Shown here piece by piece: positions 49,701 through 64,000 of a stretch of DNA of 64,000 nt; the first letter of the stretch is position 1, and each line of letters begins with the position of its first letter. The notes under the pieces were generated by a model. The model had not been told where the DNA came from. It worked only from the letters and a program-made list of their open reading frames with translations, and made no database searches. Position numbers and translations under genes: made by a program. The DNA is from Schmidtea polychroa (lineage: Eukaryota), in NCBI GenBank assembly GCA_044892525.1, contig CM097885.1, forward strand, positions 201,934,001-201,998,000, given 5' to 3'.

Positions 49701-52700
49701 ATGAAAAGCAACTGCGGAAGTCACTTGCTTATCATGGTCAAAAGATGGTAAAACTCGAGCTCATGTTGACTTATGAACAAATGATTATTGATCAAAATAA
49801 AAACTGGCTTGTTATGATTCCTTTTGACTTGATACAGAAGATGTATTTTCTAAAAGAAACAATTCTTTTAAAGTAAAATTAATTATCAAGTAAAACTTTT
49901 AATTATTAGTGTTGAAAGTTTCCTGGAATTTTGTGTGTTGATTTTTATTTTTTTGTTATTACTTAATTTTAAGAAAGTTTGTAGAGCCCAACCGAGTCTC
50001 TTTTAAAAATACTGTATCGGGACAGCTGGGGTGAATGTATGTTATTTAAGTTAGTGTGATTACATATAAGTATAAAATATAACGAATAAAATATAACCAA
50101 CAAATTCCACTTTTATAACATTTATTAACACTAAAAATTATAAACCTTATTTGTTTAGGAGATCGAGAATCACAATTTTAGTTAGGATAATTTTGAGTTT
50201 TCTTTAGAACTAGAATGAATACAAATTTCTTTAACTCTCGTAACGTTTATTATGTTTCAAAATTTATTTATTTTTCAAATTTAAGAGAATTGGATTTCTA
50301 TCTCTTTGTTTTCTAGGACGCTTATTTGCGTTTGTTATCTGAGATATTGAATTTTCAGTTCTGTTCTGGATTGGTTTTAGAAATTGCTTTTTAAAGAAAT
50401 TGAACTAAAATCTTTTCTTTATATCCGGTTATAGTTAGATAGTCTAACGTAAGGAATAAATCTTTATCCTGTATTTTAGAATTCTAGCTAGGATTTGTCT
50501 GTTGTTAATTCTTATTTTCTTTTCGAAATTTCGTTTTCTTTTTGCTTCTGGAAATTTTGAATTTTGAATTTTAATTTTGTAATTCTCTATAGTAAATTAT
50601 TACTATAGAGAATTGCTATAGTTTTATTATTTTTTATGGTACGCGTTACAAGAAAATATTAACGATTGCGAAAAACAAACTTGATAACTGGCACGAGAAA
50701 AGAGAACAAAGAAAATGAAACGAAAAAGTGTAAACAAAATAAAACACTAAATTATTGGTGAAAAGTGTTGACCGCTCGGAGAAATAATTTCAAGTCAAAT
50801 TATAAATCAAAGCTATTTGTCGTGAATATCTAGTTTATCAGGTTAAAGCAAGAATATAAAGCAAGTGGTATTCCTCACGAAGTATTGTAATGAGTACTCA
50901 ATAACAACTGTTACAGTATTGAATCATTTTGTGTAGTAAATATTTAAACCATTGTGCTGATCAATAAAGATTTATATTGTCAGGAATTCTTTTTTTATTT
51001 TTAACTAATACACGCTTTGGAATGAGATCAATTTTAACTTTCACTGACAAACCCAGCAATAGTATTCGACACTTGTAGTGTAATATATTTTTACCATCAA
51101 AATTTTCTAATATACTGCATTAGAGCTATGTTGGAACTTCAGAAGGAAATTAACAGTGAGGTATAACAAAAATTCCGGGGAATTGTATTTTGAATTCCAC
51201 AATTTTTCAGCCATTTTCCTGAAGTATAGCCTCCATCATGGAACGTTCTGGAAACGCCCATATCCATCATAAAGCCAAATCTAATAATAATAAATTAAAA
51301 ATAAAATTAATAATAATTTACAAAAAATCACCATTAAAATCAATAAAAATTAAAATTCAAAATTAACTAGAATTAAAATAATTCAAATGTGTTTTACTGA
51401 ATCAGAGCACGCACACATATTCGTACACCAAATTAGGATATATATACCGATGCATTTCGGTCTCAAACCACTCTTTTTTCACGAGTACTTTTTTGTAATA
51501 AATCAATATTAAAAGTAAATCAATGCAACAAGTTCGGAACTTGAAAAATAATTAAAATTTACTGATAAGGGAAGCTAAAAATCTAAATAGACGATTAGAA
51601 CAAATTACTTTCCTACATAGCCTTAATTTGAATCAAAAGAGCCAAGGATTTTATGAGTAACAGGAATTTTCTAAAAAAGAGAAAACAGTAATTATAGATA
51701 ACTTTTGTTCCACAGTTATCTTCAATTTGGTATCAACCCATTATTAACAAACACAAAATCACTCGAAATACTGATAATATTCATACTTAATCTACAGTCA
51801 ATATAATTCCCACTAATAGAGTCTAGCACAAACAATGATGATAAAACATTGATCATGAAAATTTATCATAAAAATTGTACCAATCCGTTTTACAACTAAT
51901 GCCGGATTATAATAGTTTCAGTTCGTATCAACACATTATTAAATAGCGCAAAATCACTCGAAATACGCATAATATTTATACCTAATTCATAGTCAAAATA
52001 ATTCCCTTAATAGAAACTATCACTGACGATAATAATAAAACCCCGATCATGAAAATTTATTATAAAGAATGTGGAAATCGGTTTCACACCTGATTCTAAA
52101 GTATAATAGTTTCGATAGTGCGCACTTTATGATAAAGTTTCCTATTAATTTAACAGGAGCCTAGTACTTAACGTTGCATTCGGAATTTTTGCCGATTATA
52201 GTGTACAAATGTACGCTCACTTTTTGATGGTACTCAGCCACTCGATACAGTTCCAACGTTGATCACTCAACGGATATCGAGCGGTACTATATCATTGTAT
52301 TCTGGGTTACGCTGGAAACAACAGGAAAGGGTAAAATGTGGATTACCTGTAACCCACCAGAAGTGACAAATTAATTTTAGTTTTAATTCATTTCATTATA
52401 TAACATAATCAAAGCCATGATGTCCCAACACTAGTTATTGAAATTACTGTCACTGAATTCCCGTTGCCGCTCTGATACCAAAACCGACCAAGATCCAATG
52501 TAACTGATAAAAAATTGTATTGTTATATACATTTTGTCATTGTTTCTTGCTTTTGAATTGTGATGATACTATTCATGGTAATTGATGGTAATTTATTTTT
52601 TGGCAATGGCTTTTTCTTAATTTTCTATTTCATTAATCTTTATTACTTTTGAGATTATAACTTTATTTTTATTATTTTGACACAAATTCCCGACAAATAT

Positions 52701-55700
52701 TCAAAAACGGATGTGTTGAAAATTAACGTTTAATAATTGGTTTTTAGTCTGTATAGAAATTAAAATTAAGGAAATTGATAGTATAAATAGATCAATGTTG
52801 AAAAGATTGCTATCATTGCTATCAAGACCCCGTAGAAAATCCATTCAAATGAGTCAAATTAACGTAAACAATTTCAAAATTTTAATTTATAAAAATTATC
52901 ATTTCCTAATATTTAAATAAGTGTTATGATTTAGGATGTTTAATGGTTCGAAAAGTAAAGCAAGAAGCGAAATTAGAGCATGAAATGCTCAATAATTACA
53001 AAATGTTGCAAAATGCATTTAGAAAGTGTGGAATAGAAAAAGTAAATATCCTTGAAATGAAATGATCAAAAACAACATTTTAATAAATTAAGGACATTCC
53101 AATAATGAATTTATTACGAGGCCGATTTCAGGATCATTTACTGTTTTCACAGTGGTTTAAACGATTTTATGATGCCAATGTTGTAAAGAAATATAATGGT
53201 AAATCTGTATCAGGGGATATTATCTCTGCAAACAGAAATTCATGCATTTTTAATCCTGTTAATCAAAAAGGTGTTTTGAATTTCTTATTTATATTTAGAT
53301 TTTTTATTTGTTTCTAATTAATTTATTAATTTAAAATGAATATTGAAGCTTGAAATATATATATATATATATAACTCATTGGCATTATAAATAGTGGGGG
53401 GAATTCCAGAGAATCACCAATCTGGGTGAAAAGAACACCCTAAAAATTTGTTTAGAGGAAGGTGTGATTTTTTAAACATTTTGATATAATGAAGTAATTA
53501 ATATTTTTATTTATTTGTTTAAATGAAGTATTTTATTTAATAATATTAATATTTTGCTTTAATAATGTTGTTTTATTTTTATTATTTGTTATAATGAAAA
53601 GTTCTTATAAAATTTTATTTTTTAAATAAATTTTAAAATTAAAATTTTTAATTATTTATCTTTTGTCAATGAAAAAACTATTATCCTTAACTTTTACTAA
53701 AAATAAATTCTTGCTAAAAAGGCATAAAACACATGCGCCGGATTTCTTTGTACATGATTTTTAGGGTCTCAGAATTTTTGTATATCATTTTTGTAGAATT
53801 CTATTGCTTTTTCACTGGTCTAAGTGAACTGGTTTTAGTCTCAAGTATTTCTGTACAAGATTTTGTGGATGAATGAAATTTAACGATTTCTACATGCAAA
53901 AATGGTTTCAGTTAAATTTTATTAATTTTTATTTAAAATATATATTTTTAAAAGTTCAATTTAAATAACCAATTATATTTAATATAATTTTGAATATTAT
54001 TGATTAATTAAATAAAATTTTTACTACTGGATTCTATAATACTAATCTTCTGTTTCAGTATAACAAGAAATCAAAAAACTTTCTTTACTTCATAAATATT
54101 TTCTGGTTTAATTTTCGTGTTTTCATAATTTATTCATCCTGTTCCATGCAAGTTTGAGTGTATTCTGTTAAAATTAATAATTTTTTCTAAGAGAAATTTT
54201 CAAATTTTTACGATATTTTATGAATAAATACATAATTTTCTCAAAATATAGAGCCGAACCAAGCAAAACGACTTTTAGATTCTGATTCAGCATATTGAAC
54301 AAACTTTAAATTTACCTTAATATCAGTGGCAATAAAAAACTGTGATGCCCAGTATAATTACCGTCTATACTCGCGTATAAGTCGAACTGACAGTTTTGAG
54401 TCATTTTTTTCGAAGTCGAAGTAAGAAAAATAAAAAAAATTAAGATATTTATTCCAAAAAATATTGACATCTTCGAAAAGTTCATTGTAGAACTCATTTG
54501 AAACATCTCCAACATGGTAAATTGGGTAATCATTATCCTCAGATTAAGTCTCGTTATCTTTCAGATAACCTCGTTCATCTTCCAGATATACACAATCTGA
54601 TTGGAAATAACAGGTTGTCAAGTTTATTTATTGTTCGTTAATGATACTTAAAAATATTTTTTGATAAATTACAATTTTATTAAGAATTTGAATTTAATTG
54701 ATTATTTAATAAAAGAAGTTACTGTATAATTAAAAAATTAACACTACAAATAATAACCAATTTAATAATTTCGCTAAAAATAAATTTGTACATTTTTTTA
54801 ACCTCGTATAAGTTAAAATTTCTCAACTTATACGCGAGTATATACGGTAGATTTTAAAAACTAAATAGTACTTTTAAGTGTGCCGCGAAAAAGTCTTCAT
54901 ATTTCCTTAGTGTCGCGAGATTGAAAAGGTTGAAAATCACTGCTTTAATTAATCAATAATTTTAATTTGACCATTTTGATGATTATACTCTATAATAGAT
55001 TAGCTAGTAAAAGATCCTAACTGATAATAATCATTTCAGCGTTCTTCTAAATTATAATATTATATATTTAGATATGGTTGAGGTTAACTGTGTATCTAAA
55101 GAGGTTAGTCCTTCGTTTAAGTTATCATCGAATGCTGACAATATTTCCAATCAAATCTGTCAAATTAAAAAAGGTCATATTACTCCAGAATTAATCGGTT
55201 TACGATCAGAATTGAATAAATACAAAGAAGAGGTAAACAAAATATTGAACAAAAATTATTTTTAAATATTAATTTAAGTACGAAGAGGATCAACAGACAA
55301 TTATTGACCTCACAAGGGAACGACAGTTTTATTATGATAAATTATGCAATATAGAAGTGTTATGTCACGAATATCAAGATAGTGAATATTCGAATTTAGT
55401 CTCTAAAGTTCAAGAAATTCTTTTCAAAGAAGAGGTCGTTAGAGTATTACTTGATTTTTTATATTTAATCAATAAGTTGAATGGAATTATTTTTTGGCCA
55501 TTGAGAACCGAAACAAACACTGCACAATAGCATTTTCGGGTATCGTTAAAAATTAAAAAAATATTCTAAATAATATAATAATAATATTTGATATTATCAT
55601 TTAAATATTTTCTTTATATCTTTGATTTGTTATTTACGTTTTCATTTATCTTTGTTCTTTCAGTCTATGGATCCAGGCCCGGCGTGAGGCGGGTACGATG

Positions 55701-58649
55701 CGTGATTTTCACGCAGGCGCCACGACGGAAAATACAAAAGGCGGCAAAATTGTATAGAAATTTGTTATTTTCATAACAATTTCCATTCTATTGTTTAATA
55801 ACTAGTCCAATTTGAGCAATATTGTTCCATCTGTGAAAAATATTTTTGTTTTGTATGCATTTATCGTTTTTTTTACTCTTATAATAAAATGCGAAGGCGG
55901 TAATATGCAATTTTCACACATCATCTGAAACTCTAGCGCCGGTGCTGTATGGATCAATATATTCAATAGAAAATAATACATTGATTTATAGTTTGAAAGA
56001 ATGATAAGAAAATTCATATTTAATTATAATCTTTTCTATCGTATTAAAATTTATAGTAATGAACCTTTCCCTACGTTTTATGTGACGAATTTATTTAAAA
56101 TATTTATTTATTTTGTTAAAAATAATACCATTTTTGTGTCAAAACTAGGTCTGAGGTCGTAGTATTGTGTTGTGTTTTTTTCGTATCATTAATACATCGA
56201 TGTAAACAGATAACAAGTCGAATAAAATCAAAAGACAAAACATCAAATAGACATGAATAAATAAATAAAAACAATACAAAATAAATGAAAAAATACATGA
56301 AAAATAAAATTTATAAACAAAATTATCGAGAATAGCAAGAAATTGTATGTAGACAAAGCAAAAAATTCACCATAAACGAAAAACAAATTCACATATCATC
56401 TTGACGATTGTAAAAATGAAGAATAAAATTAATTTATCAAAAAAAGTTACAAAAATTATAGTACAAATCGCCATTTAGATTAAATAAATGAAAATAGAAT
56501 TAATAAAAATTAAATTAAGCGTCAAATTAGTGAAATCGATCATGGCAAAAAATGGATAATTAAATAAAGTTAAATTAAAGAAAAATTGAAAACAATTAAA
56601 AGATTGATTTTTGTGGCCTTTCTGGAATGCTACACCAAACACCACTGAGATACATTTTCTATAGTTGTGGTTAGTGGGTACATCATTAAATTGAATCACC
56701 AATTTAATGAATTTCATTTCTTGAAATTTATTTTAGCCAATTTTGAAATGGCTTTCCCGTAAGATGTTTAATTTTAAGTCAATTTTAAGACTTGAATTTT
56801 TATCCATATAGATATGAGATCATTTTCAAGTTCTTAAATATTAGTTATAGCCAACATTTATGTTACATATTATTTTTAATTAATTTTCAGGTTTTTTAGG
56901 AATTTTATGGAATATATTTTATAATTATAATTTTGGAATTATTTTGATATAATGTAAGTCAGATATATTTTTTATTATATTTAAATAATTAAATCAATCG
57001 CCAAAAATGTATTTTTCTAAATATTTCTAAAACAAATAAGAAATTCTAATGAATATTTAACTTAATTTTAACTCAAAAATAATTCTTACGATGATATTTC
57101 GTCATTTTCATGACAATAGTTTCTTTAAAAATACATTTAAAAACATTTTCAGCGATAACTTATTTTCTAAAAATTGTCTAATATAGAGTTATTATAGAAA
57201 CGTATCTCAGTGGCGCATTTCTATGATTCGAAAGTTTGCATGTGTTTTAAGTATGTGTTGTGTTACTGTGCAGTATTTAATTTTTCTTCCACTTTTTAGA
57301 TTTCTATAGTGTAAGATGAAGAACATCAGCGTGAATTTAAAGTAAGTATGTATGTTTCCATAATGTAAGATTATTGATTTTTTTCTGATATTATAGGAAA
57401 CGTATCTCAGCGGTGTTTGGTGTATAATAAATTGCCTGGTGTAACTGCTAATGCATTTTTAGCACACAGGTGAGTTTGTATGTATCTTATAATATAATTT
57501 ATTTATTATTGTTTCTATATTATAGACTGCTTTTATCAAATGTAACGCAAAGTTTTACAATTCTGTATGGTAAAATAAAAATTCGAAATTTAAAGATAAT
57601 GCAATGTAACACCTGTGCCTCTGACTTTCAAATTAATAAATATATTAATTTAAGAATTAAAATTCAAATACATTATTAAATTAAAATACATTGTTTGAAT
57701 ATTCTTATATATTCTCTTTCTTTCAAACATTTACATCTTTTAGTCATTAAAATGTGTCAAAAACTATGAAATTGGAACAATTTTTGGATCAAAGAAATGC
57801 TTAACCAATATATCGAATGGGAATTACGAACGATCAATCTCGTAAAGCTGCTGCTGGTACTCCTCGTCGTCAGATCACAGTCAATAGATACGTTCAGTTC
57901 AAATAAGCAATTACACTCGAATCATGAAGATTGCACCATCAAAATTGAATATTCTAACAACACGAAATCAGGAGAGTCGTATCCAATAAAATGCAACGCC
58001 ATTCCTAAATTCGCAAATACCAGATACACTTTATACAAAGATGTGGAATCCAATAAATATATTGTACCAATTAGTTTTATGTTAGAATTTTATAATATTT
58101 TTTCAAATCAATCAACAACTGTACTGTTATTTCTGAGTAAAACACTTTAAAATGACAAATATTTCAAAAATGATTTTGTCAAAACAGTCTGGGAAGTTAA
58201 TAGAAATTGTTTTATGATTTCCCTTGTATTGGAACATAGTGCATGAAGAAGTTAATAAACTCTTCCAGGAAAATTGCTCATAATTTATGTCTATCCATTT
58301 ATGATTTTCAACAAGGTAAACATGAAGTTCATTATATTGTGTACCATTTGATATAGAAACCCGTTAGAGAAAAATACGGTAGTTTGCTTATGGGCGCAAT
58401 TTTTATTTCTTATATGCGCAATATTATTTGTTTTCAAAGTGTGAGTTAAGTAAGAAAGAACAATATAGATTCATTATGTCATACACAATATGCAATGTCA
58501 TGAACGTGTTAAAAAGATATTTTAGAAATATGAGTCAATGAATAAATATTGATTAATCAGTAAATATCATTGACTTTTATCTGTGATTTTAGGATGGATT
58601 TCAATCTCCAAATAATGAAGAGTGGATGGGTCCTTTAAGTGCGAAATAA
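43707..58649 (+). CDS. MAPRE1: EB1/MAPRE microtubule end-binding protein, divergent, 277 aa; exons 43707-43842, 43901-43939, 52935-53041, 53093-53270, 55072-55232, 55279-55434, 58593-58649
   Basis: All six introns are GT-AG and phase-consistent, giving an 834-nt ORF. CH domain: [65 protein letters not shown] domain: [31 protein letters not shown]. Confidence 0.9.
44750..47330 (-). mobile_element. Degraded Gypsy retrotransposon in EB1 intron 2 (protease, RT, RNase H remnants) between ~120-bp LTR-like direct repeats
   Basis: [10 protein letters not shown]; [34 protein letters not shown]; [17 protein letters not shown]; repeat CCATTCACGATAATTATTAATTAGGTAATTTAA at about 44815 and 47257. Confidence 0.8.
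47540..47906 (+). mobile_element. Possible Polinton/Maverick-associated (F54H12.2-like, putative capsid) gene fragment
   Basis: [43 protein letters not shown]...AIYYI resembles from memory the LLNxVxxRIKLxR...KVKIxxAxLxVRKVKxxPxVL...AKYPI pattern; weak, by eye only. Confidence 0.3.
48569..49765 (+). pseudogene. RACK1: RACK1 (GNB2L1) processed pseudogene in EB1 intron 2
   Basis: [88 protein letters not shown]; intronless, several stops and frameshifts. Confidence 0.95.
48911..49510 (+). repeat. Exact 300-bp tandem duplication (48911-49210 = 49211-49510)
   Basis: Lines 48961/49261, 49021/49321, 49081/49381 and 49141/49441 are identical. Confidence 0.97.
49980..50650 (-). mobile_element. Solo-LTR-like element (671 bp)
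   Basis: Minus-strand TGTAACGCGT...GGGCTCTACA; end homologous to 29987; AATAAA on the minus strand; no clean TSD. Confidence 0.6.
50651..51071 (+). mobile_element. Partial LTR related to the 17311/21228 family
   Basis: Shares the AATAAA and CACGCTTTGGA motifs and ends ...TTCGACA. Confidence 0.4.
51735..52125. repeat. Two diverged tandem copies of a 195-bp unit
   Basis: CAAAATCACTCGAAATAC at 51754 and 51949; GATCATGAAAATTTAT and TATAATAGTTTC recur at the same spacing. Confidence 0.8.
54361..54847. mobile_element. pogo/Tigger-like MITE (487 bp)
   Basis: TIR CCGT(C/A)TATACTCGCGTATAAGT at both ends; TA TSD. Confidence 0.88.
55674..55947. mobile_element. hAT MITE (274 bp) in the last EB1 intron
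   Basis: Imperfect TIR CAGGCCCGGCG / CGCCGGTGCTG; perfect 8-bp TSD TATGGATC. Confidence 0.85.
57797..58150 (+). other. Unassigned 117-codon ORF nested in the last EB1 intron
   Basis: ATG-initiated ORF with hydrophobic stretch [11 protein letters not shown]; no recognisable domain; could be a frameshifted remnant. Confidence 0.25.
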
Positions 58650-60427
58650 GGCTTTCCTTTATTTTATGGTTTTTCCATTCTAAACTTTGTTGCATATACT
58701 TATGGTGAATAAGAATTATATCTTACAACATGTGTTGATGAATTTATTTAATAAATCAGCATATAATTTCAATGTTAATAACAAAAATAACCACTGAATG
58801 AGATTAAAACAACGTAAATTCTATGAATTCATTGATTTTTAAAAGTGCTTTTTAGTTATGTGCTACGAAGTTAATAATGTGCTAGAAAGGTAAATATGGT
58901 GTGGCATATTAACATATTTATTGATTGGTTCATTACTGATACTGGAACGGTTTGTGAGTGGTCGACAAAAACCACCAATTAAAACAATATCACCATATTA
59001 TAGCCATAACTTAAAATTTCAAATTGTAAAAATTTTCAAACTTCTCATAAATAAAAGTCTTGATAATTCGCTTATCATAATCTATAAACAGTACATTCGG
59101 AAACACGCTTTACAATATTTTTAATTGAAACTGTCAATTACTTTTGCAATATTAATTTGAGCGTTCTAGATGTGTTGAGAAGCATTTGTTTAACTGTCAG
59201 GAGAGTTAAAATGCATTCAATTTGACTTTTAAAGAACTAAACTTTTGCGCTGCAGTCTTAAAGTTTATAAATGTACACAAAGTGCTGAGTATGTTTTACT
59301 TCATTGCAGATCCAAAACTGATATTCTGTCGGCTTGGTAGACAGATCACTAAAATTATATTTTATATTTGTTTGTTAATTATCCTAAAAAATTCCTAAGA
59401 AATTGTTTATGTTGAGACGACAGCTCATCATAATTTGGTTCTTGGGTTGGATTGAGCCATTTTAGTGTCCAAGGCACAAACCCACATGGGTGCCCTTGAT
59501 ATTTCACTAACCGTAACCGCTGGTATGTTCAATATTATCCAAAGAAAACAGTTGTTAACAAATATGTTTGTAGTTTGTACTACTATCACTCATAAAACTT
59601 ACAATAAAGTATTTGTGTATTAAAATTAATAGTTAATAAATTTTGAAATAATAATAGACAAAAATACTGCCAAACTTGAATGTGAATTTTTATTATAATG
59701 TATTTCTTCATTTTCATAGCACTTGTTCAATTTAGAATAAAGATATAGTCATTTAAAGGGATTTTAATTCATCTTATTGGTTTGATATTATGAGGCAAAA
59801 ATATGATCTTTTACAAATATTTATCGATAAAATACCAATCTTTAAAGATGGATAGATATTTCATGGAAATTTGATGCTTTTAGATGATTTGAGTGGAATT
59901 CACTTGGATATACAAATGGTAGAATATTGTCATTTAAATGAATTTACTGGTTTATTCGATTATTTAATGTAATCTATAGGGCTTATATCAGTCACCTTTG
60001 GAATTTATTAATAATTATTTAGATCTTTCTAGGGTAAATGGTTGCTTTTGATAAATTATAAATGAATTTTTACTGAATTTTCTGAATAATTTGAGCAACC
60101 AGTGAATCAAATTGAGTTTAGATGTATTAATAAGCTAGATTATTTGGCGCCCTTGGCAAACTGAAAAAAATACGAAAAAAAAATGACAAATATAGAAGCA
60201 CTATTAAAATTTTATTTTTCTTGCTTTCAGGCTGGAAAATTTATCAATTTACATTGTGAAAACTAAGACTATTAGTTACATCAAATTTTAATGATAAAAT
60301 ACTTAAATTAGTTAATCTTTCTTGGTCTATTGCTGATCCTAAATAATTTTTGATTAATTTCATTTTGCTGAATGCTCTTTCGCAAGAAGCAGATGTCACA
60401 GGTAATGTTAGAAATATTCGTAATATT

Positions 60428-60518
60428 TGTAGGAATAATGTAATATTAAACAATTAATGTTGTTTTAATATTATGAAAATGTCGTAAAAATATTTTTTGA
60501 AAAACGTTTTGTCTTACA
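60428..60518 (+). repeat. 5' LTR (91 bp)
   Basis: TGTAGGAATAATG...TTGTCTTACA, repeated at 63062-63152. Confidence 0.95.
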
Positions 60519-60530
60519 AGCTATCCGGGC
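60519..60530 (+). promoter_or_regulatory. Putative primer-binding site AGCTATCCGGGC, complementary to nt 1-12 of tRNA-Lys(UUU)
   Basis: Abuts the LTR terminal CA. Its reverse complement GCCCGGATAGCT is the 5' end of animal tRNA-Lys(UUU), recalled from established sequence; the host tRNA was not checked. Confidence 0.65.
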
Positions 60531-60531
60531 A

Positions 60532-61248
60532 ATGGAAATCAACAAGATCATAATTGAAAATGTTGGAAAATTCGATGGCAAAAATAGAGATGTGGAAGAA
60601 TGGTTCGACAAACTCGAAATTTTTTTGGAAGCCAAGAATGTGAAAAATGTCATGAATGTAATGCCATTTTTACTTGAAGGGCAATCTTATGCAGTTTTCA
60701 AACAGTTAAAGAAAAGCAACACGACAATAGATTTTTGTATGCTGAAGAAGGAATTATTGAAAACCTTCGGTATGAGCGAGCAAGAAGCTTTTACGAAACT
60801 TTTACAGAAAAAAATGTTAATGGGTGATAACTTGGATGTCCATGTAAATGAATTAAGGTCACTGTTGGAATGTTCAGGTGATCTACTAATCCGATTTTTT
60901 GTAAATAGCTTACCAGGTGATTTGTCAAATCAACTAAAGATGTCAACAGCGTCAACAATGAATGAGTTAGTCGCTCAAGCAAAGAAAATCGCAAGTCATC
61001 AAATTTATGACAATGAAACGGTTGCAGTAGTAGTACCAAGATCAGATAGTGGAAGACAAGCCAATCGAAAATGCGATATATGCAATAGTGCTAATCATGT
61101 GGTAAGATACTGTCCAGAAAGACGCAATATCAGATGTGCAAATGCGGTATTATGGGACATATTTCAAGGTTTTGCAAGTCGGGAAAAAATCAAAGGGCTA
61201 CACACAATGTGGAGTCCGGTGTGGCCCCAAGAATTGTGAATATGTGAG
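60532..61248 (+). pseudogene. gag of the LTR element (frameshift near 61139 before the second knuckle)
   Basis: FDGKNRDVEEWFDKLE; CDICNSANHVVRYC; C..KCGIMGHISRFC. Confidence 0.8.
61181..61227 (+). promoter_or_regulatory. Putative -1 ribosomal frameshift signal (G GGA AAA, 7-nt spacer, 9-bp stem)
   Basis: The heptamer is in the gag frame and the protease ORF is in the -1 frame; stem GGGCUACAC (61195-61203) / GUGUGGCCC (61219-61227). Confidence 0.7.
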
Positions 61249-63061
61249 ACTCCTAAAAGTAAATGGTGATGTAAAAGCATGTTTAGTTGATTCGGGCAGC
61301 ACTACCACTATAGTAAAAGGAAATTCACGAAAATCTATGACTGAGGTAGCGATGCTTGATGGTTCAATCATATATGCTGAGCGAAGTAAAGTTGATATAT
61401 GGGTTGGAGATAAGTTATTTAATATTGATTGTTTAATATACCCGAAACTAGTATCCAATTTTGATGTAATTTTAGGAGTGACTGCTATTAATAGGTTTGG
61501 TGGAGTTCGATTGAATAAAGAAGCCATATTCGGTTGTGAAGAAGCACCTTGTCTGTATTCGTTATATGGCCAGTTAGTTGGAATTTATCCTGTGTGTGGG
61601 TGGTTGCGGTCAGCTTGCTCATATATCAAGAGGCTATTCAGTGGAAATTGGGATGATTCAATAGAAAATCATATCGTTGACAAAGTAAAATGGTTATTAG
61701 AAATGAAAGAGATCCATCGTCAGGTATTTGGAGTGTTCCCAGCAATCAGACAGGCATTATTTGGTGCGATGCAAGTTCGATCGCCATTGGAATTGTATTA
61801 GAAATGGAAGGTTCAGTGCTTGAAGATGCGTGTTGGTTGCGAAAACCTGATGATTCAAGACACATTAATTAGGTGGAATTAGAAGCGATTGTGAAGGTTA
61901 TTAATTTATGTATTAAATGGAATCTAAAGTACATCAAAATTAAATCCGATAGTAAATCAGTTGTGTGTTGTGTTAACAGCATATTATCAAGCGACAGAAA
62001 AATGCATACAAAAGCAAATTCAGAGTTGTTAATACGACGAAGGCTGGAGCTCTTAAAAGATCTAGCGATTGAGTATGAACTTAAAATGGACATTGAGTTT
62101 GTATCTACAGAAAATAACAAGGCTAATGTATTAACGAGAGTACCAGCCAACTGAATGATTATTAAAAAAGAAGTCGCAGCTTTAGGCAATCAAAAAAGCT
62201 CGAAAGATGTGTTATTAGAGATTCACAAGAACTGCCATGTAGGGAAAAATCGTATGCGATTCTTAGCATCGGAAACGGGGCTACTTAATGTGGATAATGA
62301 TATCTCAGAAATAATTGCAAGTTGTAATCAATGCCTATCAATTGACCCAGCCCCAGTAACGTAGGAAAAAGGTGAACTAAGCTGTGATGAAAATTGGTGC
62401 CGTTTAGCAATTGATGTAGCTAAATTGGCTAAAGATAAATATTTAACAATTATTGATTGTGGACCATCGAGATATGCAATCTGGAAGAAAATTAAGAATG
62501 AAAGTGTAGAAGAGATATGTAATGCTTTAAATGAAGTGGTATATGAAAGAGGAGCTCCAAGTGAAATATTATTAGATAATAACTTATCTTTTAGATCTAG
62601 AAAATTTCAAAAATTAGCAGATAAATGGAATGTTGAGTTGGTATTTAGAACAGTGAACCGTCCAGCGGGAAATGGGATCATTGAACGCAGCCATGGGCAA
62701 TCAAATCGCTAGCAGCTAGGTTCTCAGGAACAATCGCAGAAGCTGTGTACTGGTTCAACAATACGCCAAACAACAATAATATGTGTCCATCTAGAGCCAT
62801 ATTTAGATATAATCCAAAGCTGAATCTGACAAGCTACAATAAAAAAGAGATAATAATCGAAGCAAAATATTCTGCTGGTGACCCAGTATGGATAAAACCG
62901 AACTTTAATCAAAAATGCACAGAAAGATGGAAAGATGGATATATCATTAAACCATTATCAAATGCAAAATTTTGAGTCAGATGTAATGGATACGATATGC
63001 CGCGACACGTGGGCGATATGAGAAAAAGAGTTGTTAAAGATTCAGATGAATCTGGTGGGGA

Positions 63062-63152
63062 TGTAGGAATAATGTAATATTAAACAATTAATGTTGTTTT
63101 AATATTATGAAAATGTGGTAAAAATAGAATTTGAAAAACGTTTTGTCTTACA
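63062..63152 (+). repeat. 3' LTR (91 bp)
   Basis: Matches 60428-60518 with 4 substitutions; followed by TSD ATATT. Confidence 0.95.
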
Positions 63153-64000
63153 ATATTATTTCAACATTTGGATATAATTCTTTCATATCCAAATTGTAAA
63201 TAAATTGAAGAAGCTGCAGTGGAGTTGGAAAATTTTGTTTAAAAAGTTCTACTGTGAGTGAGATATCTAAAACTACAAATTTCAAAGCAAAATTCTTCAA
63301 CATTTAAACCATTTCTATATTTTAACGCCAAATTTGTTGCTGCCTTTAGAAGGTCTCTAGAATCGGCTTCAAAGAGATTTTTGGTGATTAAAAATTTCAA
63401 GAACTTAGATTATTTTTATTTATTTCAGATATTAATGGTTTTTCTTTGGTATTATTTTCTCCTGTTATAATTCTCCAGTGTACATTACCAACATGTTTTT
63501 TGTCATGATACATGATGGTAGAAAGTAAAATAATCATGATGATGTTTAGAGAAAAGTTATAGACAAATCTACTAGCAACCTAAAGATATTTAAAACACCC
63601 CTTAAGCGCCAACAAAAATTAACTTTATACACCTAAGCGATGACCAACTTGTATCACTAAATCAGCCATGCACAACCTTTTCAATGCTGTACCGACATAT
63701 TATTTTTTATGACCAAATTAAACAAAAAACTGAATAAAACTATGCAAAGTACAAACTCAAACAGAAGAGTAAAAATAATTTTTTCCATTAATTTAAAATT
63801 TTTATCACACCATTTAAAAAATGTAAGGTTTGCATGTCATACTGAGATTCATTTTTTATGTAATGACATAAAATATATCAAGCAATTAGAATTCATTTTT
63901 AATATATGCGGACATAAAAAATCTCAATTAGTAATCAAGAGTACTTTTTTAGTGTCATTTCATTTCATATCGGATTATTTTCTTATGCATTTCAATGTAA

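Follow-up and report, generated by a model that had tools for sequence, protein, structure and literature searches.

How does an LTR retrotransposon start reverse transcription when the sequence behind its 5' LTR carries no TGG? This question is raised by an element on the forward strand of a 64,000-nt stretch of Schmidtea polychroa DNA (hereafter the window). The element extends from position 60428 to 63152 and is flanked by a 5-bp target-site duplication, read as ATATT on the left (60423-60427) and on the right (63153-63157). Its two LTRs (60428-60518 and 63062-63152) are 91-bp direct repeats with TG...CA ends and 96% identity; an AT-rich imperfect palindrome inside them (60441-60473 and 63075-63107) possibly forms a hairpin in U3 or R. 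A purine-rich tract adjoining the 3' LTR (63044-63061) is the predicted plus-strand primer. The gag ORF (60532-61239; 235 aa, weak zinc-knuckle match) contains one CCHC knuckle, while a second one, recognized by reading the sequence, is broken by a frameshift. It is followed by a pol piece with an aspartic protease motif and then a reverse transcriptase (RT) thumb (61136-61801; ORFs and Pfam matches, DUF7047 for the thumb), an RNase H piece (61873-62154; RVT_3 and RNase_H matches below cut-off) and stop-interrupted pieces of the integrase zinc-binding and core domains (62155-62712; Integrase_H2C2 and rve matches). Alignment to a longer sister copy, L084, places the absence of about 830 nt of the RT core at about 61553; the copy in the window is thus non-autonomous and would depend on a full-length relative for RT. 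The LTRs, the target duplication, the purine tract and the gag-PR-RT-RH-IN content, with the RT core kept in sister copies, identify the element as an LTR retrotransposon. Elsewhere in the window, a unit of about 194 bp occurs twice in diverged form (51727-52113), and inverted repeats of 27-33 bp with 91-93% complementarity make up two pairs, at 56631-57424 and 54359-54849, that resemble small DNA transposons.

The sequence AGCTATCCGGGC, at 60519-60530, abuts the terminal CA of the 5' LTR, and a single A separates it from the gag ATG at 60532. The arrangement described in the original prediction, a 12-mer immediately behind the LTR, no TGG and the gag start one nucleotide further on, is confirmed by these coordinates, as no TGG site is present directly after the 5' LTR of the window. 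The 12-mer was not found downstream of the 3' LTR, where the ATATT duplication stands instead. Comparison with host tRNA genes called by ARAGORN also agrees with what had been predicted of the tRNAs: AGCTATCCGGGC is the exact complement, at 12 of 12 positions, of nt 1-12 of tRNA-Lys(UUU), and the start of tRNA-Lys(CUU) is one base off. The predicted 12-bp duplex between this putative primer-binding site (PBS) and tRNA-Lys(UUU) has a free energy of -23.5 kcal/mol. Since the base preceding the tRNA-Lys gene start has no complement in the element, the match stops at the mature tRNA's 5' end. Both borders of the PBS are therefore defined, by the LTR end on one side and by tRNA base 1 on the other. 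The CCA end of the tRNA has no partner at the site. By simple arithmetic, assuming about 100 distinct tRNA starts, the chance that a given 12-mer fits the first 12 bases of some tRNA is about 6 in a million.

In the 781-Mb genome, AGCTATCCGGGC has 1344 exact matches; 1241 of these show the start pattern of tandem tRNA-Lys genes and 94 are directly preceded by CA, the reversed control giving 0 in both cases. The tRNA genes concerned lie in very large tandem arrays, with a 424-bp unit for Lys(UUU) (1241 matches), a 255-bp unit for Phe(GAA) (1940 matches) and a unit of about 794 bp for Lys(CUU) (531 matches). Large tRNA arrays are sited on C4 near 76.66 and 77.03 Mb, on C1 near 34.23 Mb and on C2 near 142.9 Mb.

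We considered whether the element might prime itself from its own 5' end in the manner of Tf1, given that the pairing segments are of comparable length (11 versus 12 bases) and that TGG is absent. However, the window LTR offers no complement of 4 or more bases to the 18 bases that follow it, in line with the original prediction, which saw none to the 12-mer, and the whole element offers at most 6. In nine of nine elements the longest complement is 0-7 bases in the LTR and 6-7 bases in the whole element. These figures make self-priming very improbable.

Sister copies were then compared. Among the 30 closest, AGCTATCCGGGC is exact in 26 and has one mismatch in four, so that the predicted conservation is found; these copies being 96-100% identical, retention of the 12-mer alone says little. 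A wider sample, chosen by motif (100 longer stretches around motif matches; 152 distinct contexts from 190 clustered loci), placed the Lys 12-mer in 63 contexts of the window family, 12 of a family with a 410-bp LTR and three of a third group, and two other families in this motif-chosen clustering show a different 12-mer. At least three further LTR families of the genome have the Lys 12-mer. For a distant family, designated B (LTRs of 94-99 bp), 30 copies were selected by protein search and not by motif. Twenty-six of them carry AGCTATCGCGGC, which is fully complementary to nt 1-12 of the host tRNA-Phe(GAA) (ARAGORN); two have one mismatch, one has no LTR end and one has the Lys 12-mer. A relaxed pattern gave 443 genomic matches, with 146 for the control; the first 100 of the 443 included 42 of Phe type and 25 of Lys type. 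On a tree, wide distances separate the four families that were placed from this genome, and each matches host tRNAs. The original proposal of a Lys tRNA thus stands for the window family; it does not extend to the whole lineage, in which tRNA-Phe starts are the commonest match. In L312, L313 and L314, the family-B LTRs hold a stretch like one in the window family's LTR, which may be a shared motif or mark chimeric LTRs.

While integrase homologues were named from a barnacle, crabs, a bryozoan, a sea spider and Trichuris, the PBS sites from named species are those of this genome alone, and relatives elsewhere are metagenome contigs. The metagenome scan covered 75 loci, from the best 80 of 126 relatives, whose proteins are 34-64% identical to the query. 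A gag profile located the gag start in 53 of the 75 loci, three of which have 57 or fewer bases upstream. The profile was seeded from motif-bearing loci, 22 loci had no gag match and several are near-duplicates; because of the seeding and the unmatched loci, a divergent subgroup could be missed. In all 50 loci with a gag start and upstream DNA, such a 12-mer lies shortly upstream, and 45 of the sites read CA then AGCTA. No TGG site occurs in any of the 50, and hence no ordinary PBS of the kind that would have spoken against the original prediction. LTR pairs put the 12-mer at the LTR border in L140, L156, L161, L168 and L173. A number of contigs (L121, L122, L125, L126, L130, L134 and others) are circularly permuted and carry a single LTR; they are either collapsed repeats or one-LTR circles.

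Starts of tRNAs confirmed in this genome or by a published probe fit 26 of the 50 sites. Twelve sites match the host-type Phe start, 12 the Phe start sequence given by a Drosophila tRNA-Phe probe (reported in PMC7038984), one Lys(UUU) and one Lys(CUU), the last start being that of the host gene and also of a Triops probe (reported in PMC4501094). The other 24 sites have no confirmed tRNA, and five of these (L128, L160, L163, L177 and L190) deviate from the pattern. Additional PBS variants were compared with viral tRNAs: one starts tRNA-Phe genes in 8 of 10 matches, another stands at the start of Thr or Leu genes in 6 of 8, and a third coincides with a tRNA start in 1 of the 40 scanned out of 42. 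As these are not host tRNAs, the matches were left out of the support. No relative of the lineage was found in the viral contigs searched.

An information profile was built from 46 contexts, namely 41 of the 50 metagenome sites (minus eight near-duplicates and one near a contig end) and five families of the genome itself. Positions 1-5 and 10-12 of the PBS hold 1.6-2.0 bits. Positions 6-9 are variable and hold less information; they lie opposite tRNA nt 4-7, where the acceptor stem varies. At position 13 the value falls to 0.36 bits, so that conservation ends sharply at base 12, and the flanks are unconserved. A tree built by a quick method holds 53 of 64 candidate rows, the other 11 having aligned over too short a stretch or not at all; in it the PBS types are dispersed, and the window family sits on a long branch. 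A 12-mer is short, and one could imagine a chance resemblance or a single tRNA capture passively inherited; yet two host tRNAs are matched in the same register, and the motif is conserved across proteins of 34-64% identity where its flanks are not, leaving this the least probable of all the readings considered. Slightly better placed, but still highly doubtful, is the notion that the 12-mer serves as some other conserved signal, either a switch by which a tRNA fragment acts on the gag start, often only a few bases away, or a dimerisation or integrase signal, the almost invariant palindrome AGCT being its first four bases. Against it stand the exact PBS position of the 12-mer, the lack of an alternative primer site and the fact that the variable bases track tRNA identity.

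The length of the paired segment can also be questioned, as a 2-base spacer followed by a 10-nt primer is a possible alternative to a 12-nt primer. One locus, L193, in which the first PBS base differs, hints at 12 bases and is the single case that speaks against the shorter primer; its 12-mer would pair with a tRNA whose nt 12 is G, presumably elongator tRNA-Met. The first part of the 12-mer is changed in L193 (1330-1430 region) and in L190 (near 1140).

Altogether, the sequence comparisons indicate that a tRNA 5' fragment of about 12 nt very probably primes minus-strand synthesis, whichever nuclease cuts it. Our preferred version, which we hold to be somewhat better than an even bet, is that the primer is nt 1-12 of the tRNA and that the cut is made by the element's own RNase H, in the manner of Tf1 but acting in trans. 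The element RNA would invade the acceptor stem, at its 5' strand, together with the beginning of the D stem; cutting between nt 12 and 13 of the tRNA would then yield a 3'-OH facing the last base of the LTR, which RT would extend into minus-strand strong-stop DNA. Because antiparallel pairing sets U12 of the tRNA beside the last LTR base, only a 3'-OH at or near nt 12 could prime. Plus-strand synthesis would later copy the 12-nt primer to its 5' end. As the primer would thus be copied back, the PBS would be fixed at 12 bases, and a wrong tRNA could rewrite the site.

The pairing itself does not demand that the tRNA be cut. An intact tRNA, bound by its 5' end, could act as an anchor or cofactor, with the priming 3'-OH supplied by its freed 3' end elsewhere or by a protein; in the cloverleaf, pairing at nt 1-7 would release the 3' strand. 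This arrangement appears improbable since TGG is absent at the LTR border in the window and 50 relatives, the duplex terminates exactly where the 3' end of a primer is required, and a scan of three elements (no shuffled control) for second tRNA-pairing sites returned only long, loop-rich duplexes and none that was compact.

If the tRNA is cut, as we favour, the enzyme has to be considered. The RNase H active-site residues D-E-D-D are invariant in 24 of 24 full-length relatives, and a structure model (mean pLDDT 80) shows a single RNase H right after the thumb. The same primer could have another maker, either a host nuclease that cuts directly or a longer 5' fragment trimmed 3' to 5' up to the duplex edge at nt 12. 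A host-made fragment accounts equally well for every sequence observation. However, enzymes of the RNase A and T2 families leave a 3' phosphate when they cut, so that repair would be needed before priming, and we count this against a host nuclease. RNase P was rejected as the cutter on inspection, by the reasoning that from nt 13 onward the tRNA would not be paired with its 3' end and that the usual geometry would be absent. In a planarian, 5' tRNA fragments are abundant and include Lys-TTT, but those described are 18-35 nt long, smaller sizes apparently falling outside the study's range (PMC7962491, as far as its open text goes). In Tf1, RNase H is reported to act on an RNA duplex at the PBS, with the cut falling between bases 11 and 12 (PMC7175516). 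By analogy, we consider the element's RNase H the likelier cutter; a fragment made by the host, or trimmed, we regard as possible but distinctly less likely.

One copy of family B may bear the trace of such copying. L110 (the same location as L089), near 259,577,100 on C1, has the Lys 12-mer together with identical LTRs and family-B sequence flanking both sides. Compared with the two nearest sisters, 17 of 3460 bases are changed; C/G transversions account for just two of these changes, and they fall on the two adjacent bases by which the Phe and Lys complements differ. The predicted duplex at the switch is -14.6 kcal/mol for the mis-annealed tRNA and -22.7 kcal/mol for the cognate one. Copying of a mis-annealed primer would produce this pattern, which is suggestive, not decisive. 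Recombination between families is a possible source too, given that some family-B LTRs share a stretch with the window LTR. L110 is the only such switch copy in the assembly. Contigs of four other DNA runs, which drop rare variants, contained the Phe form only, and no reverse switch was seen in the window family (four matches, none from that family). Copying of the primer into the PBS is described for retroviruses, and Ty1 and Ty3 are reported not to do so (stated in PMC7472051).

To which lineage do these elements belong? They are compact, 3.5-4.4 kb, and the segment of the window that bears on the question is 61556-61690. The domain order, PR-RT-RH-IN in P0011, is gypsy-like. None of 24 members has a gypsy-type RNase H (Pfam PF17917/PF17919) at E 0.05, and none has the BEL/Pao thumb-RNase H region covered by Pfam Peptidase_A17; DUF7047, put at the RT thumb by the predicted model, is found in 24 of 24 relatives. 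Against gypsy RT (22-28 bits) and BEL/Pao RT-RH (28-29 bits in three of four) from this same genome, profile scores are low and similar, and a weak continuous alignment to BEL/Pao runs from RT to RNase H. The best sequence and fold matches are retroviral: the best PDB matches are retroviral integrases and RTs, the integrase being closest to a betaretroviral one, and in a protein atlas the nearest clusters are DUF7047 ones, then retroviral Pol, with no lineage name there. Odin elements and retroviruses are described as having a dual RNase H, made of a tether and a new RNase H (PMC9040795); in the predicted model one RNase H directly follows the thumb and no dual arrangement is seen. We leave the lineage unplaced; Repbase may have a name for it. 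The name 'SN clade' was considered and dropped, as no paper was found for it.

The match between the 12-mer and tRNA 5' ends is real and lineage-wide. The variant of priming that it points to is apparently undescribed so far. The original prediction knew of no described example, and a search of the open full-text literature, with Repbase, supplements and most subscription journals outside its reach, likewise found no description of a PBS matching the first 12 bases of a tRNA. Nor does a tRNA-5'-end PBS appear in the open text of PMC6934838, PMC5006619, PMC5445492, PMC3286476, PMC9289625, PMC13191261 or PMC5348765. We consider it an even chance that these elements represent a fourth priming mode, in which a deep, unplaced DUF7047 lineage spread across invertebrates unfolds a host tRNA starting at the 5' end and severs it after nt 12 with its own RNase H, as a trans counterpart of Tf1 that might form a bridge from tRNA priming to self-priming. 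If true, a fourth type of primer, fixed lineage-wide, would join the three surveyed for LTR elements, that is a whole tRNA, a half tRNA cut in the anticodon stem and a self primer (as listed in PMC6317226). PBS searches would have to change, as programs relying on tRNA 3' ends or TGG would score such elements as primerless, and the 12-mer would serve as a diagnostic for a lineage that has no Pfam hallmark to place it. Further predictions of the proposed mechanism are that a retroelement enzyme acts on intact host tRNA, cutting it in the D stem, that 5' tRNA fragments have a new source, and that silencing of the PBS could come from 5' tRNA fragments rather than from 3' ones.

How this mode would relate to known systems can be seen by taking each in turn. 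In canonical priming by the tRNA 3' end, as in retroviruses, most Ty3/gypsy and BEL/Pao elements, the site starts with TGG; here there is no TGG and the opposite end of the tRNA is matched. Among Ty1/copia elements, Drosophila copia and Ty5 are primed by half-tRNAs. Osser, Bryco and Bianca belong to the same half-tRNA group (PMC6317226) and would share with the present lineage the use of a cut tRNA in which the 3'-OH is not that of the CCA end. In these elements, however, the cut falls in the anticodon stem, and the survey, in its open text, records them only among Ty1/copia (PMC6317226). In the lineage studied here the longest complement is to tRNA nt 1-12 and not to the anticodon arm, cutting would take place in the D stem, the matching tRNAs are those for Lys and Phe, and the order PR-RT-RH-IN of P0011 differs from that of Ty1/copia, where integrase precedes RT. 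Non-TGG sites are also known from fungal GalEa (a hairpin; PMC5445492), Dictyostelium Skipper (a pyrimidine tract; PMC5006619) and bivalve TRIMs (PMC6934838), with no match to a tRNA 5' end described in the open text of these papers. The closest parallel is provided by Tf1, Tf2 and the Tf1/sushi group of Ty3/gypsy chromoviruses. Unlike those elements, the present ones show no chromodomain match (0 of 24 relatives) and no self-complement in the LTR, and the primer would be a host tRNA supplied in trans. What the two would have in common is a primer formed by the extreme 5' end of an RNA, with 11-12 bases that pair at the LTR border with a PBS and a cut just after the duplex (PMC7175516 and PMC4600332, in their open text). 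With the same geometry applied to a different RNA, the origin of Tf1 self-priming would become testable.
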